A stretch of DNA of 19,808 nucleotides, from IMG/VR virus record IMGVR_UViG_2617270952_000001; one strand, given 5' to 3'. How positions within the stretch are numbered: position 1 is the stretch's first letter; each line of letters starts with the position of its first letter. This stretch comes from a virus (Duplodnaviria > Heunggongvirae > Uroviricota > Caudoviricetes). A model generated the notes under the pieces. It was not told the origin of the DNA and did no database searches. It saw only the letters and a list, made by a program, of their open reading frames with translations. Of this stretch, positions 2,522-12,460 are shown piece by piece. The translations under genes were made by a program, and so were the position numbers.

Positions 2522-2779
2522 ATACAGCGAACTCCATTGGTTTAGTTGGATATTTACTGTGCTGGACAAAAACGGTTTGCGGGGAAATCTTAGTTAAGTA
2601 GAATGACTGCGGGTGCTTGAGGCTATCTGCCTCGGGCATGGACACCAACGGCAGATAGAGAAAAGCCCCAGTTAACATTACGCGTCCTGCAAGACGCTTA
2701 ACATTAATCTGAGGCCAATTTCATGCTAGACACATGTAGGTTAGCCTCTTACGTGCCGAAAGGCACGGAGAAGCAGGCT

Positions 2780-4420
2780 ATTGTTAACACCAAGCTGTAA
2801 TGTCCCCTTTGAACCATTCTAAAATGTCCCCAGACAATTCTCTGGGGGATTTTTCATGATCAAAGAGACTGTTACGATGAGTCATAAGGAACTCCACCGA
2901 CTTCAGATTATTCAGGAACAAGCTGCGGCACGCATTGGCATTTCTATTCGGCAGGTTAAACGTCTGGTGCAACGGTATAGAAATGAAGGGCCTTCTGGTC
3001 TGGTTTCCCACCGACGTGGAAAGCGTCCTAATAATTCCTTTTCTACTGAATTCAGAGCAACAGTAATTTCACTCCTCAAAGGCCGTTACGCTGATTTTGG
3101 ACCTACGTTTGCGTGCGAAAAATTGCGCGAGATACACGGTTTATCTTTATCCGTTGAAACTCTCAGAAAGTGGATGATAGAAGAGGGGTTATGGCGTGAA
3201 CGCCGTCGTAAAATTGCCCGTATATATCAACGCCGCATGCGACGACCATCTTACGGTGAACTGATCCAGATTGATGGCTCACCTCATGACTGGTTTGAAA
3301 ATCGAGGCCCCAGATGTACACTGATCGTTTTCATTGATGATGCCACCAGTGCGTTGATGGCGTTGCGTTTTGTGCCTGCTGAAACAACCCGGGCTTACAT
3401 GGAAACCCTCCGGGGTTACCTTAATGATCATGGCGTACCGCTCGCTCTCTACTCTGATAGACACAGTATATTCAGGGTAAATAACCCAGAGCGGGAAGGT
3501 GAGCTGACCCAGTTCACTCGTGCGATAAAGACACTGGGCATCGAGCCAATCCATGCCAACAGCCCGCAGGCAAAAGGGCGGGTAGAGCGCGCCAATCAGA
3601 CACTACAGGACAGGCTGGTCAAAGAAATGCGGCTTCAGAATATCAGTGATATTGAAACAGCAAATGCATGGTTGCCGACCTTTATTGAAGCCTATAACAA
3701 CCGGTTCGCTACGTCGCCTCGTACTACTGATAATGCTCATCTTGATGTGCACCATTCTGAAGAGGAACTGGGTTATATCTTCAGCCTACAGGCGAAGCGC
3801 GTTCTGTCTAAAAATCTCACTTTCCAGTACAAAAGCAGTGCGTTTCAGGTACGCAGTGAGGGCCGGGGATATCGACTTAGGCATTCGGTTGTTACTGTAT
3901 GCGAGAACTTTGACGGTGAAATTAACGTTCTGTATGACGGGAAAGCGCTGGGCTGGGAAAAGTATGTTGATGGCCCGGAGCCTATACCACTGGATGATGA
4001 AAAGAGTGTCCATGAACGAGTGGATAATGCCCGTATTGATTTACGCTCAAAATACTATGTTAAACCTAAAGCTGACCATCCCTGGCTTACGCGCCGAACG
4101 CAAAGTCATCAGCAAGTTAAGCCCCCGAAGTTACCTAAAAAGAAGCCTGATCCCGATAAAAAAGATTGAAACCAAGATCGATTCGGTTGAGTGCATATCC
4201 ATTCATAGGGTAGATTCTTAAGTCGCGTTTCTGGTGTTCATTTTCGGGTGGTTTGTTACTTGTTTTACCGGGGATATGCCAGAAACGCGCTGAGTCAGTC
4301 TGGGCGGTGCGCGTAATGAGGCGTTATGGTAAATAGCCTATGCTAATGTCCGCTAAGAGCAAGAAGCGGAAGTTGGCAGTTTTGTGGACTGTCCCCACAA
4401 AAGTGACTACAGAAATAGTT
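2780..4420 (+). mobile_element. putative insertion sequence carrying the DDE transposase; termini not resolved
   Basis: Transposase ORF flanked by short repeated motifs (AATGTCCCC at 2799-2807 and 2823-2831; TAATGTCC at 4344-4351; TGTCCCC at 4390-4396). I could not find clean terminal inverted repeats, so the boundaries are approximate. Confidence 0.3.
2856..4169 (+). CDS. DDE transposase with retroviral-integrase-type (rve) catalytic core and N-terminal helix-turn-helix; IS481/ISNCY-like single-ORF transposase
   Basis: 437-aa ORF. Catalytic-core signature IQIDGS ... LYSDRHS ... KGRVERANQTLQD (D, D, E with K/R), N-terminal HTH (IGISIRQVKRLVQRY), basic C-terminal tail. Confidence 0.85.
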   Translation: MIKETVTMSHKELHRLQIIQEQAAARIGISIRQVKRLVQRYRNEGPSGLVSHRRGKRPNNSFSTEFRATVISLLKGRYADFGPTFACEKLREIHGLSLSVETLRKWMIEEGLWRERRRKIARIYQRRMRRPSYGELIQIDGSPHDWFENRGPRCTLIVFIDDATSALMALRFVPAETTRAYMETLRGYLNDHGVPLALYSDRHSIFRVNNPEREGELTQFTRAIKTLGIEPIHANSPQAKGRVERANQTLQDRLVKEMRLQNISDIETANAWLPTFIEAYNNRFATSPRTTDNAHLDVHHSEEELGYIFSLQAKRVLSKNLTFQYKSSAFQVRSEGRGYRLRHSVVTVCENFDGEINVLYDGKALGWEKYVDGPEPIPLDDEKSVHERVDNARIDLRSKYYVKPKADHPWLTRRTQSHQQVKPPKLPKKKPDPDKKD

Positions 4421-4564
4421 GCAATTCATAATTGATCATGGGTTGTCAGTTAAACTCGTGGCGATTTAAATAGACTAATTGGGAGTGCGTCCATTACTTA
4501 TATCTTGTAATGTTAACTATCAGAAATGATACAAAGATAATATGTCTTTAAAGAAAAGGCTGAT

Positions 4565-4592
4565 GGCGAAAAGTGGCCCGATGAGGGCCACA
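4565..4592 (-). terminator. rho-independent terminator downstream of flxA
   Basis: 7-bp stem GTGGCCC/GGGCCAC with 5-nt loop (4574-4592), followed on the minus strand by TTTTCGCC. Confidence 0.5.
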
Positions 4593-4605
4593 ATACGGCT
4601 GTCAC

Positions 4606-4938
4606 TTAGACGTAAATATCAATGGTGCCAGCGGTATTTGTATCGTCTTTTTTCTCTTCTTTTTTATCAGGCTGAACTGTCGCGTCTTCATTCTTTTTCT
4701 CTGCCTGCTGCCTTAACAACTGCTCCAGTTGAGCCCAGAGGCTTTCAATTTGCTTCTGTACCAATGCAGCCATTTCTTTTTTCTGCTGTGTCGTCATCCC
4801 CTCTTCCGATGAGATTTTCCCAAGCTTTTCAGTCAGCACCTGAATTTGTCTTGTGATTTTGGCTATTTCTGATGTTCCTTCCGGGGCGGAGTTGTTTGAA
4901 ATAACGGTTGAGGTATTTCCCTGAATTGTGACAGACAT
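4606..4938 (-). CDS. flxA: FlxA (FliA-regulated protein of Qin prophage)
   Basis: 110-aa product MSVTIQGNTSTVISNNSAPEGTSEIAKITRQIQVLTEKLG... matches my recollection of K-12 FlxA. A sigma-28-type promoter lies immediately upstream. Confidence 0.9.
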   Translation of the reverse strand: MSVTIQGNTSTVISNNSAPEGTSEIAKITRQIQVLTEKLGKISSEEGMTTQQKKEMAALVQKQIESLWAQLEQLLRQQAEKKNEDATVQPDKKEEKKDDTNTAGTIDIYV

Positions 4939-4961
4939 AGATTTCTCCTTTTAAAAAAGCA

Positions 4962-4988
4962 CTATCGGCATGCACAAAAAAATCTTTA
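4962..4988 (-). promoter_or_regulatory. sigma-28 (FliA) type promoter for flxA
   Basis: Minus strand reads TAAAGATT-N11-GCCGATAG, close to the sigma-28 consensus TAAAGTTT-N11-GCCGATAA, about 25 nt upstream of the flxA ATG. Confidence 0.65.
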
Positions 4989-5140
4989 ATCGTATTTCTT
5001 GTGTCATTAATTGTTTGATGTTCAGATTGTTTTCCTCGCGGGCTGGCGCGCCTCAGAAAGTAAAGCTTGTTGACAGGGGTAAACGTTCGGCAATAATTTT
5101 CTGCCGCATGCGGGTGTTGCATAAAACGTGTTACGTTCCT

Positions 5141-5446
5141 TTATCGACAGGTCAGGTCACCGCTCACCCGCCGACGAGAAAGCAACACTGACATGCTAAA
5201 GCAAAAAATAGATGAATAAGTTGAGTTGTGCATATGTAGCCTGACCGTCACAAAGTATATGGTGTCTGTACCAGTAAGATGATGGCCGGACTCTTTAAAA
5301 ACGAGCTGACCTGCACAATACAGGATGGACTTAGCAATGGCTGCTCCTGGCACAAAGCGGACAGTGATCACCGTTCTTACGACTACTTTCTGACTTCCTT
5401 CGTGACTTGCCCTAAGCATGTTGTTGTGCGATACTTGTAATGACAT
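5141..5446 (-). CDS. ydfV: hypothetical protein at the position of YdfV (between relB and flxA)
   Basis: 101-codon ORF in the position and with the length I recall for K-12 ydfV. Its ATG (5444-5446) lies inside the relBE operator palindrome; no clear Shine-Dalgarno seen. Confidence 0.5.
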   Translation of the reverse strand: MSLQVSHNNMLRASHEGSQKVVVRTVITVRFVPGAAIAKSILYCAGQLVFKESGHHLTGTDTIYFVTVRLHMHNSTYSSIFCFSMSVLLSRRRVSGDLTCR

Positions 5447-5459
5447 TTGTAATTACAAG
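5434..5459. promoter_or_regulatory. relBE operator (relO) inverted repeat in the relB promoter
   Basis: Palindrome CTTGTAATGACATTTGTAATTACAAG 12 nt upstream of the relB ATG; RelB-RelE autoregulation through such a palindrome is established. Confidence 0.7.
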
Positions 5460-5470
5460 AGGTGTAAGAC

Positions 5471-5710
5471 ATGGGTAGCATTAACCTGCGTATTGACGAT
5501 GAACTTAAAGCGCGTTCTTACGCCGCGCTTGAAAAAATGGGTGTAACTCCTTCTGAAGCGCTTCGTCTCATGCTCGAGTATATCGCTGACAATGAACGCT
5601 TGCCGTTCAAACAGACACTCCTGAGTGATGAAGATGCTGAACTTGTGGAGATAGTGAAAGAACGGCTTCGTAATCCTAAGCCAGTACGTGTGACGCTGGA
5701 TGAACTCTGA
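5471..5710 (+). CDS. relB: RelB antitoxin
   Basis: 79-aa product MGSINLRIDDELKARSYAALEKMGVTPSEALRLMLEYIADNERLPF... matches RelB; stop overlaps the relE start (TGATG). Confidence 0.95.
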   Translation: MGSINLRIDDELKARSYAALEKMGVTPSEALRLMLEYIADNERLPFKQTLLSDEDAELVEIVKERLRNPKPVRVTLDEL

Positions 5711-5997
5711 TGGCGTATTTTCTGGATTTTGACGAGCGGGCACTAAAGGAATGGCGAAAGCTGGGCTCGACGGTACGTGAACAGTTGAAAAAGAAGCTGG
5801 TTGAAGTACTTGAGTCACCCCGGATTGAAGCAAACAAGCTCCGTGGTATGCCTGATTGTTACAAGATTAAGCTCCGGTCTTCAGGCTATCGCCTTGTATA
5901 CCAGGTTATAGACGAGAAAGTTGTCGTTTTCGTGATTTCTGTTGGGAAAAGAGAACGCTCGGAAGTATATAGCGAGGCGGTCAAACGCATTCTCTGA
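5710..5997 (+). CDS. relE: RelE toxin (ribosome-dependent mRNA endonuclease)
   Basis: 95-aa product MAYFLDFDERALKEWRKLGSTVREQLKKKLVEVLESPRIEANKLRGMPDCYKIKLRSSGYRLVYQV... matches RelE. Confidence 0.95.
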   Translation: MAYFLDFDERALKEWRKLGSTVREQLKKKLVEVLESPRIEANKLRGMPDCYKIKLRSSGYRLVYQVIDEKVVVFVISVGKRERSEVYSEAVKRIL

Positions 5998-6068
5998 ACC
6001 AAAGCATGACATCTCTGTTTCGCACCGAAGGTGACACTTCTGCTTTGCGTTGACAGGAGAAGCAGGCT

Positions 6069-6224
6069 ATGAAGCAGCAAAAGGCGATGTTAATCGCCCT
6101 GATCGTCATCTGTTTAACCGTCATAGTGACGGCACTGGTAACGAGGAAAGACCTCTGCGAGGTACGAATCCGAACCGGCCAGACGGAGGTCGCTGTCTTC
6201 ACAGCTTACGAACCTGAGGAGTAA
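6069..6224 (+). CDS. hokD: Hok-family membrane toxin (HokD/RelF), 51 aa
   Basis: ATG at 6069 gives MKQQKAMLIALIVICLTVIVTALVTRKDLCEVRIRTGQTEVAVFTAYEPEE*, the Hok family signature. Below the 60-aa cutoff of the supplied ORF track. Confidence 0.9.
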   Translation: MKQQKAMLIALIVICLTVIVTALVTRKDLCEVRIRTGQTEVAVFTAYEPEE

Positions 6225-10359: not shown

Positions 10360-11383
<1,024 letters not shown>

Positions 11384-11745
11384 GGTAATATTAAATCGGA
11401 ACATTTACATCGCGGAATGTAAAATTTAAATAAAAAGGACTCTTCCATGAGCCAAAATTCCTGAAATCTTAAGGGTAAGATAAAAGGTCTTAATCAGAAT
11501 GACACGTTTTATTAATAAATAAAGCTATTCTTTCATTGCTGTGTTTTTCTTTACAAAAGTAATCCTTGCTATGGGTGGTTAATCATGCGTTAATGGTGTT
11601 CTGGTTTGTTACAAATTTATCTGAAGCAGTCATTGTTATAATTTTATTATTTGTACCTCTTGAGATTTCCTTGTTGGTTTTTCTCTCTGATATTTTTTTT
11701 CGGACCATTCTGCCCAAGGGCTAATTTCTTCAAAAGGTAATAATT

Positions 11746-11958
11746 ATGTCTAACAAAATGACTGGTTTAGTGAAATGGTTTAACCCTGAAAAAGGTTTTG
11801 GTTTCATCACGCCGAAAGATGGCAGCAAAGATGTGTTTGTCCATTTCTCAGCAATTCAGAGCAACGATTTCAAAACATTAACTGAGAATCAGGAAGTTGA
11901 ATTTGGTATTGAGAACGGACCTAAAGGTCCTGCCGCTGTTCATGTAGTGGCGCTTTGA
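11746..11958 (+). CDS. cspI: cold-shock protein CspI (CspA family)
   Basis: 70-aa product [70 protein letters not shown]; long AT-rich leader. Confidence 0.95.
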
Positions 11959-12162
11959 GGTAGACAATATTACAAACCATATTCACTTTAGATGCCCGTG
12001 TTGTCATGGTTCCCAGTATAGAACATCATCTTTTGATGTTTCTGACATGAATCCTTTCGGGGCAAAATGTATCTTTTGTAAATCAATGATGATTACATTT
12101 GATAATATTTCACAATACTTAAATGCCAGCCGTCTGTCGTTGGATTTAAAAAAGTGAAAATG

Positions 12163-12186
12163 AAGGCTCCTTCGGGAGCTTTTTTG
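12163..12186 (+). terminator. rho-independent terminator
   Basis: GGCTCC-TTCG-GGAGC hairpin followed by TTTTTTG. Confidence 0.5.
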
Positions 12187-12229
12187 CTTGGTGTCTATTC
12201 GATGGATACTCACATACTACGGTAACATC

Positions 12230-12460
12230 ATGAAAAAAATCATAGTTTTTTTTAACTCTGAACCAGCAGTGGTAGTGCCAGCGATGACTGGAGTTAACAC
12301 CATCATGCGTGAATATCCAAATGGCGAAAAAACACACCTTACTGTAATGGCCGCAGGGTTTCCATCTCTGACCGGAGATCATAAAGTCATTTATGTAGCC
12401 GCGGATCGACATGTTACTTCAGAAGAAATTCTGGAAGCAGCAATAAGGCTCTTGAGTTGA
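12230..12460 (+). CDS. hypothetical protein, 76 aa, no family assigned
   Basis: ATG-initiated ORF MKKIIVFFNSEPAVVVPAMTGVNTIMREYPNGEKTHLTVMAAGFPSLTGDHKVIYVAADRHVTSEEILEAAIRLLS with protein-like composition; weak ribosome-binding site; sits just after a terminator. Confidence 0.3.
   Translation: MKKIIVFFNSEPAVVVPAMTGVNTIMREYPNGEKTHLTVMAAGFPSLTGDHKVIYVAADRHVTSEEILEAAIRLLS

Follow-up and report, generated by a model that had tools for sequence, protein, structure and literature searches.

We analyzed a 19,808-nucleotide stretch of viral DNA (the window; Caudoviricetes, IMG/VR record IMGVR_UViG_2617270952_000001) that carries a transposase gene near the hokD toxin gene. We conclude with high confidence that positions 2782 to 6055 constitute a single 3274-bp cargo-carrying ("transporter") transposon of the IS1202 family of insertion sequences (IS), that it is inserted in the hokD locus, and that it belongs to a clade whose members insert mostly at the upstream edge of predicted promoters. 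The unit contains the transposase gene (tnp), flxA, ydfV, relB, and relE.

The left junction was located by alignment. Five contexts turned identical exactly at position 2782 (TGTTAACACC...), and the same junction was common to about 100 further loci from genomes and metagenomes. The left end (IRL, left inverted repeat; 2782 to 2831, + strand) starts with TGT and holds two direct putative transposase-binding sites, at 2793 to 2807 and 2816 to 2831, each ending in ATGTCCCC (copies at 2800 to 2807 and 2824 to 2831). This two-site layout was conserved in relatives from Hahella and Rhabdochlamydiaceae. The right end (IRR; 6000 to 6055, + strand) lies directly after the relE stop codon and ends in CTGCTTTGCGTTGACA. 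When IRL from 2782 was compared with the reverse complement of IRR from 6055, 22 of 30 positions matched (19 of 26 was also computed). The tips are TGT at 2782 to 2784 and ACA at 6053 to 6055, and TGT...ACA tips were found in all relatives examined. The IRR tip was identical at every validated right junction and resembled the ends of the relatives (GGGTTGACA in Hahella and TTTTGCGTTGACA in Rhabdochlamydiaceae). Its putative binding sites were GTGTCACC and a degenerate inner GATGTCAT; in the elements from Hahella and Rhabdochlamydiaceae, each end showed both sites clearly. Directly outside the tips, a 15-bp target-site duplication (TSD), GGAGAAGCAGGCTAT, comprising the hok Shine-Dalgarno sequence and the AT of the ATG codon, occupies 2767 to 2781, with an exact repeat at 6056 to 6070. 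The unit was therefore set at 2782 to 6055, because the IRR tip lies at 6055, IRL and IRR match, and GGAGAAGCAGGCTAT is present on both sides. An earlier reading made without database searches (the sequence-only reading) had placed the element at 2780 to 4560 and had seen no clean terminal inverted repeats. Its limits have to be redrawn so that flxA, ydfV, relB, and relE fall inside, and IRL does have a partner, at 6000 to 6055. It was right that no inverted repeat exists near 4400: a right end around 4374 to 4411 was considered and rejected, since no acceptable inverted repeat was found there by eye and the junctions in other contexts were ragged, within 4360 to 4374.

The target could be reconstructed from empty sites. 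The Rfam model RF01794 ("sok") matched 2611 to 2782 over its full length (104 bits; gathering score, 59), and the match stopped right at the junction, where the hok start codon lies. This hok/sok leader (2611 to 2781, + strand), with the mok start and the sok gene, is the target DNA on the promoter side. The other half of the split target is the hokD open reading frame (ORF) at 6069 to 6224 (+ strand; Pfam HOK_GEF, E = 1e-23), now transcribed behind relBE. Together they make up the layout of a hok locus, in which a leader containing sok and mok precedes a Hok/Gef ORF, and the halves are contiguous in empty sites. A synthetic query, in which the left flank was joined to the hokD ORF with one 15-mer, was matched in a single piece in 3826 of 5426 complete Escherichia coli genomes. 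The empty site of strain CP53 has the 15-mer once, in the same Qin-like prophage context, and its flanks are identical to those of the window at 209/215 and 249/250 positions. Comparison with an empty site had been proposed in the sequence-only reading, and it bore out the 15-bp duplication. The element inserted in an intact hokD locus, duplicating the 15 bp GGAGAAGCAGGCTAT and parting the hok/sok leader from the hokD ORF, and the resulting arrangement is the relB-relE-hokD ("relBEF") layout of E. coli. The event would uncouple hokD from mok and sok control and set it behind relBE, with the duplication regenerating the hokD Shine-Dalgarno sequence and ATG. A short ORF at 2724 to 2790, running from the mok ATG in the leader into IRL, is a truncated mok and not a gene of the element; its plasmid counterpart is annotated as a 21-aa "DUF5431 family protein."

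Further copies were found, and they established the long form with the distal IRR as the mobile unit. Intact copies, such as those of the Enterobacter IncF plasmid NZ_CP096189 and of Shigella, measure 3301 bp. The unit was present as independent insertions in three other hok-family loci on plasmids, each with a matching 15-mer on both sides and the same IRR tip: the duplication is GGAGAAGAAGGCCAT at the hok locus of IncF plasmids and TGGAGGGGCTATGAT at pndA of IncI plasmids. The 15-mers at hokD and at pndA are each site's own sequence. At the IncHI2 hok locus of Cronobacter sakazakii pGW1, a 6.1-kb unit is flanked by GGAGAAGAAGGCCAT, as at IncF hok, with a different adjoining hok ORF. A 4275-bp unit in Scandinavium occupies a non-hok site and is flanked by CATTAAGCTGCAAAT; a 2575-bp unit at locus L077 is flanked by GGATTCACGACGGAT, with 2 mismatches between the copies. 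Cargo-less relatives, 1449 to 1466 bp long with a single ORF, were also found. The one in Hahella (62% protein identity, 1449 bp) is present in 11 copies, with two ATGTCCCC sites per end and the tip ...GGGTTGACA. Duplications of 15 to 17 bp flanked the 11 Hahella copies and 8 of 9 Rhabdochlamydiaceae copies.

The transposase gene tnp (2856 to 4169, + strand) encodes 437 aa of the IS1202-family (ISNCY) ISEsa1 type. Its product matched the NCBIfam model NF033594 (ISNCY_2, "ISNCY family transposase") with 456 bits against a cutoff of 250 (E = 7e-137). The IS481 model NF033577 gave 125.7 bits, below its cutoff of 224, so the protein is not assigned to IS481. The ORF and its DDE character had thus been recognized correctly in the sequence-only reading; between the two families that it had suggested, ISNCY holds and IS481 does not. 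Pfam detected N-terminal helix-turn-helix domains and a weak match to the rve_3 core, and the sole match in a PDB sequence search was a weak one to a retroviral integrase core. Plasmid copies, 99% identical to the transposase of the window, are annotated by PGAP as "IS1202-like element ISEsa1 family transposase." Members of the IS1202 family have TGT...ACA tips, imperfect inverted repeats of about 25 bp (range, about 22 to 29 bp), a second internal transposase-binding site at each end, and a transposase of about 390 to 510 aa; their duplications are, by subgroup, 3 to 5 bp, 16 to 28 bp, or none reported (ISEsa1) (Harmer & Hall 2023, PMC10132070). The present element has a homologous large DDE transposase (437 aa, or 446 aa in intact copies), imperfect inverted repeats with TGT...ACA tips, and a long duplication, and on these features we classify it as a member of the family. 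The copy of tnp in the window has a 27-bp in-frame deletion between short direct repeats, which removes 9 aa (SINRHITQE) from the N-terminal helix-turn-helix region. These residues are kept by every relative, and the intact transposase has 446 aa. Their loss from the DNA-binding region has probably crippled the transposase and left this copy immobile.

Next, we examined the target choice. Left junctions were collected with an IRL-only pattern, without use of the flanks in the selection, which gave 87 distinct flanks; from the metagenome sample, 73 of 120 junctions were used, all of them left junctions. Promoters were scored with a sigma-70 weight matrix, with the -35 start fixed at nucleotides 16 to 17 from the junction and a spacer of 16 to 18, and compared with shuffles. 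Nineteen distinct flanks were hok-like, and several more had a hok-type duplication. Reading outward from the junction, all of the hok-like flanks showed 15 to 17 nucleotides, TTGCCT or TTGCAT, a 17-nucleotide spacer, and TAnCCT. This pair is located where the promoter of Sok RNA must be, with transcription antisense to the mok start. The corresponding promoter in the window is predicted at 2738 to 2766 (- strand), with the -35 sequence GTGCCT (2761 to 2766), a 17-nucleotide spacer, and the -10 sequence TAACCT (2738 to 2743); it fires leftwards, and its -35 sequence abuts the duplication. We infer that it is the sok promoter from where Sok must pair with the mok start. The insertion point falls at the hok ribosome-binding site because sok and hok overlap, which places the position upstream of the sok -35 sequence there. 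The GTGCCT of the occupied site stands against TTGCCT in the empty site of CP53 (L207, about 4721 to 4726) and in other hok loci; this T-to-G change hits the most conserved -35 position.

A hok-specific target was given up in favor of a promoter-specific one after non-hok flanks showed the same -35/-10 layout. Among 62 mutually unrelated non-hok flanks, the mean promoter score was 4.9 bits, against -5.1 for shuffles. At the fixed position, 43 of the 62 exceeded the 95th percentile of the shuffles and 32 exceeded the 99th, whereas only 1 to 5 passed at other offsets. Raw base counts in non-hok flanks peaked at TTG and TAnnnT, namely, T17 (49/68), G19, T40, A41, and T45. In these 43 junctions, the start of the sigma-70-type pair directly follows the 15- to 17-bp duplication, and the promoter points away from the element; every known duplication has its boundary precisely at the -35 hexamer. 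In the preferred orientation, tnp is divergent from the promoter. Several predicted promoters are directly followed by tRNA genes (tRNA-Met in L025 and tRNA-Asn/Pro in L036; judged by eye, also in L072 and L044). The score was above 6.3 bits in 6 of 9 Rhabdochlamydiaceae copies (50% identity), and the flanks of L078, L044, and L079 (47 to 49% identity) also fit the pattern. Tandem elements one duplication length apart were seen at L021 (about 2916), L026 (4377 to 4395), and L127; such re-insertions fit a target that survives insertion. At L046 (about 2997), an IRR abuts an internal position of another tnp.

We propose that the transposase would select promoters, either via contact with bound RNA polymerase holoenzyme or by reading promoter DNA, and would make staggered cuts 15 to 17 bp apart, with the proximal edge at the upstream edge of the -35 hexamer. 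Insertion would leave the promoter intact, so that the site could be hit again. A holoenzyme-bound promoter is favored as the target because the enriched bases are those that sigma-70 reads and because the rule holds across distant hosts; direct DNA readout is a serious rival. More specifically, transposases of the ISEsa1 clade may be guided by the holoenzyme, through sigma-70 region 4 or the alpha C-terminal domain, to cut at the upstream edge of the -35 hexamer, in a manner similar to that of Ty3. This proposal is tentative, and we place it a little short of probable. If it is true, the strong sok promoter would make hok loci hot spots, and the textbook relBEF operon would have been born of such an event.

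The structure of the element may be right while the pattern at its junctions has another origin: the transposase could have a sequence preference of its own (approximately TTG-N21-TA-N3-T), or only insertions upstream of promoters could survive selection. We regard this as a credible explanation on the doubtful side. The conserved positions are few (TTG, TA, and T), a protein-protein contact with polymerase is unsupported, relatives of the ISAjo2 group likewise keep a set distance to a DNA site, dif (PMC10132070), and insertions upstream of a -35 sequence are likely harmless. However, the enriched positions are exactly those of sigma-70, including the -35 TTG, the -10 T/A/T, a hint of the extended -10 TG, and a spacer of 17 to 18 nucleotides. 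The pattern extends across Enterobacteria, Hahella, and Chlamydiae, whose transposases are only 50% identical, and several of the targets are promoters of tRNA genes or of sok. Selection alone, moreover, would not explain a junction that is precise to the base pair.

Several observations weigh against promoter-edge targeting or against other parts of our interpretation. With respect to the element itself, IRR is only 22/30 identical to IRL and its inner site is degenerate; tnp carries the 27-bp deletion, and nothing in the copy of the window shows current activity. Transposition within the clade is itself known from sequence comparison alone. The promoters are predicted from sequence, with independent support only for the tRNA and sok cases, and ORF orientation at the junctions was uninformative as a promoter test, as long spurious ORFs occurred on both strands. 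The pattern is not universal, being absent from about 19 of the 62 flanks, and relatives from Massilia (45% identity), L053, and L067 show no promoter pattern. One hok insertion, at L020 (2927), is in the opposite orientation. That hok sites are over-represented in enterobacterial copies may in part be due to selection or to the spread of plasmids already carrying the element. Finally, the data cannot separate tethering to RNA polymerase from direct DNA readout. The promoter-edge rule is limited to the clade, because the Massilia, L053, and L067 relatives lack the pattern while L044, L078, and L079 fit it, and target choice may have diverged within the family. The Massilia copies at L059 and L066 (about 2880 to 2930) lie next to palindromes resembling repetitive extragenic palindromes (GTGGGCAC...GTGCCCAC) or have a common GTAGGGTG flank.

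A spread of the hok-flanked layout by homologous recombination between hok loci, after one ancestral insertion and without repeated transposition, is very improbable. The hok loci share homology and often occur on the same replicons, and relBE has been described as acquired horizontally from plasmids and integrated in hokD (Ramisetty & Santhosh 2016, cited in PMC6379469). Against this, the duplicated 15-mers are site specific and identical on both sides at hokD (GGAGAAGCAGGCTAT) and at pndA (TGGAGGGGCTATGAT), the IncF and IncHI2 hok sites have one 15-mer (GGAGAAGAAGGCCAT) but different adjoining hok ORFs, the element is 99 to 100% identical between sites with flanks only about 70% alike, and non-hok sites with their own duplications exist.

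The published description of ISEsa1 differs from the unit defined here. The published ISEsa1 measures 1609 bp, its inverted repeat matches at 15/22 positions, neither a duplication nor a target could be given for it, and it was put in a separate "no TSD" subgroup; a target was found neither for this nor for the long-TSD subgroup (Harmer & Hall 2023, PMC10132070). The ISfinder entry, from C. sakazakii, shares its left end with the present element, and the transposase is about 92% identical in protein sequence to copies on Cronobacter-type plasmids; here, however, the mobile unit is 3.3 to 6.1 kb long, ends in a distal IRR, carries relBE and other cargo, and is flanked by a 15-bp duplication. 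ISEsa1 aligned only from about 2782 to 4364 of the window, with the TGTCCCC motifs inside the element; no known IS aligned end to end with these motifs outside it. C. sakazakii pGW1 has an IS110-family element, ISEsa2, in the loop of the hairpin that ends the conserved left arm (L206, about 10738 to 12230; equivalent to window 4364/4365). The left junction of ISEsa2 there reads GAGCGAGA joined to TATAGTC; about 1.49 kb further on, the hairpin continues with AGCGGACATT. The left junction of ISEsa2 lies 1610 bp from IRL, against the 1609 bp of the ISfinder entry, and a Kluyvera copy (L017) is the same element without ISEsa2. From this agreement in length, the 1609-bp limit appears to be the ISEsa2 insertion junction and the entry a truncated description. 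Many IncHI2 plasmids from Klebsiella, Enterobacter, and Salmonella have the same insertion of ISEsa2 at the hairpin loop. The duplications of 15 to 17 bp move ISEsa1-type elements out of the "no TSD" class, and loss of that subgroup would remove an argument once used for splitting the IS1202 family. Least credible of all is a self-contained IS of 1.6 to 1.8 kb (2780 to about 4400 to 4560) with direct TGTCCCC ends, or a 1609-bp ISEsa1 without TSD, that has relBE and flxA as mere neighbors: the entry tabulated in PMC10132070 gives just such an element, all enterobacterial variants are common over 2782 to about 4364 to 4374 and divergent beyond, and a TGTCCCC-like site, GCGGAAGTT (GCGGACATT in relatives), lies at 4366 to 4374 in the orientation of a right end, but the right junctions of the "short" forms are ragged (4360 to 4374), no such form has a duplication, the 1610-bp stretch of C. 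sakazakii ends at the ISEsa2 junction with the hairpin resuming beyond, and duplications and empty sites were found only for the long unit. The sequence GGTTGACG, after the hairpin in the Phytobacter and Klebsiella michiganensis copies (L003 and L006), resembles a degenerate IRR but has the wrong spacing and no duplication.

The motif TGTCCCC, noted in direct orientation in the sequence-only reading, where no obvious terminal inverted repeats had been seen, has exactly three copies in the window, always on the + strand (2801 to 2807, 2825 to 2831, and 4390 to 4396), and a related sequence, AATGTCCGC, lies at 4345 to 4353. The count is not significant (3 against 1.75 expected; 47 of 200 shuffles reached three). 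The position of the two left copies is conserved in every relative examined, from Hahella to Chlamydiae, and we interpret them as the paired sites at which the transposase would bind the left end, an arrangement also known from Tn7 and Mu-like ends. The sites and the direct orientation of the left copies stand, and they represent the normal double site of an IS1202-family end rather than a stand-in for inverted repeats. The palindrome noted at 4380 to 4402 was also confirmed: its arms, TTTTGTGG (4380 to 4387) and CCACAAAA (4395 to 4402), are separated by ACTGTCC, with the third TGTCCCC in the loop, and the predicted fold has -12 kcal/mol (z = -2.4). The palindrome occurs solely in copies whose cargo is of the flxA (E. 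coli) type; it lies within the cargo and is not an end of the element.

From about 3985 to beyond 6224, E. coli K-12 and the window are identical; to the left of this stretch they are unrelated. K-12 therefore carries a 5'-truncated remnant of the element, with IRL and most of tnp lost by deletion. This reverses an earlier assumption that the window has an insertion relative to K-12, which is a deletion derivative rather than an empty site. The relB-relE-hokD region of the K-12 Qin prophage corresponds to the element's right arm, but K-12 lacks IRL, so that the element is not recognizable in that strain. The ydfW gene of K-12 consists of the last 49 codons of tnp, that is, the C terminus of the transposase. 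PGAP splits the intact ORF of strains of the window type (window 4020 to 4169; L001, 6278 to 7570) into a "partial, missing C-terminus" pseudogene and YdfW. The account of relBE and hokD in PMC6379469 describes no transposon, inverted repeats, or duplication.

Internally, the element consists of three modules: a left arm (2782 to 4374), a variable cargo (4375 to 5344), and a conserved right arm (5345 to 6055). Two hairpins were predicted in the left arm. One, terminator-like with a T-run, lies at 2827 to 2853 (+ strand; -13.1 kcal/mol, z = -2.2) between IRL and the tnp start codon and may shield tnp from outside transcription. The other (AATGTCCGC ... GCGGAAGTT; 4341 to 4378, + strand; -16.9 kcal/mol, z = -3.7) separates the core from the variable cargo, all enterobacterial variants diverging within 4360 to 4374. 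The cargo comprises flxA (4606 to 4938, - strand; Pfam PF14282 FlxA, E = 2e-14) and the ydfV ORF (5141 to 5446, - strand), which spans the boundary at about 5345 as placed by the pGW1 alignment and whose product had no match in a Pfam search. The right arm holds the relB promoter region, the antitoxin gene relB (5471 to 5710, + strand; Pfam RelB, E = 1e-32), the toxin gene relE (5710 to 5997, + strand; Pfam ParE_toxin, E = 2e-13), and IRR, and its counterpart in C. sakazakii pGW1 is about 99% identical. The variable part of the pGW1 element has a cytochrome b gene and a cation-diffusion transporter gene in place of the flxA-type cargo. Similar motifs bracket the variable cargo, AAGCGGAAGTTG at 4366 to 4374 and AAGCGGACAGTG at about 5345 to 5360, both like the putative transposase-binding site GCGGACATT; they hint at a possible route of cargo exchange. 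The Scandinavium element (L037, 4568 to 7020) has four long cargo ORFs of 208, 210, 163, and 88 aa, which by eye, without a family search, resemble a GrpB-like protein, a hexapeptide (streptogramin-type) acetyltransferase, a GNAT-type toxin, and a small antitoxin-like protein, the last two adjoining IRR. If these calls are true, a second toxin-antitoxin type occupies the position of relBE.

The literature that could be searched, subscription-only papers being outside the scope, contained no description of promoter targeting by IS1202-family elements or of a relBE transposon. Measured against it, several points appear to be new: how far ISEsa1-type elements really extend, the 15-bp duplication they make, the toxin-antitoxin and other genes they carry, the origin of the relBE-hokD arrangement in a transposon, and the promoter-edge target rule. 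The position of the paradigm relBE operon in front of hokD in K-12 is explained as transposon cargo dropped in a type I toxin-antitoxin locus. Such elements provide a mobile route for toxin-antitoxin modules (relBE and the putative GNAT-type module of Scandinavium) and for metal- and drug-related genes among IncF, IncI, and IncHI2 plasmids and prophages. The landing rule, the upstream edge of promoters, is simple and testable, and it may offer a tool for promoter-proximal insertion. If the transcription machinery mediates the targeting, this would be a mode for which we found no bacterial description in the searched literature.

Besides ISEsa1, the known systems close to this element include the long-TSD subgroup of the IS1202 family (ISTde1, ISCARN53/62/63, ISShha1, and ISVisp7; TSD of 16 to 17 bp), which shares with the present element the TGT...ACA tips, the long duplication (15 to 17 bp here), imperfect inverted repeats of about 25 bp, a putative second internal binding site, and a single large DDE transposase; the element described here differs in its promoter-edge target rule and its passenger genes. 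Elements of the ISAjo2 group, of the same family, insert at dif/pdif, 5 bp from the XerC arm; they, too, show a constant spacing and orientation relative to a site occupied by a complex of host proteins. Like the present element, they encode no accessory targeting proteins, but their duplication is 5 bp and their target a Xer site, in contrast to 15 to 17 bp and a sigma-70 promoter here. Tn7 is similar in its TGT/ACA tips and in the multiple direct transposase-binding sites at each of its TnsB ends, the corresponding sites of the present element being putative. The present element has no homologues of TnsA, TnsC, or TnsD, its other ORFs being flxA, ydfV, relB, and relE, so it is not classed as Tn7-like. 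Yeast Ty3 is a known mobile element positioned at promoters by the transcription machinery, at Pol III start sites. The present element is a bacterial DDE IS and not a retroelement, and a protein tether is only proposed for it; with Ty3, and with Tn7 at attTn7, it shares a "safe-haven" mode of insertion, beside and not inside a conserved functional site.

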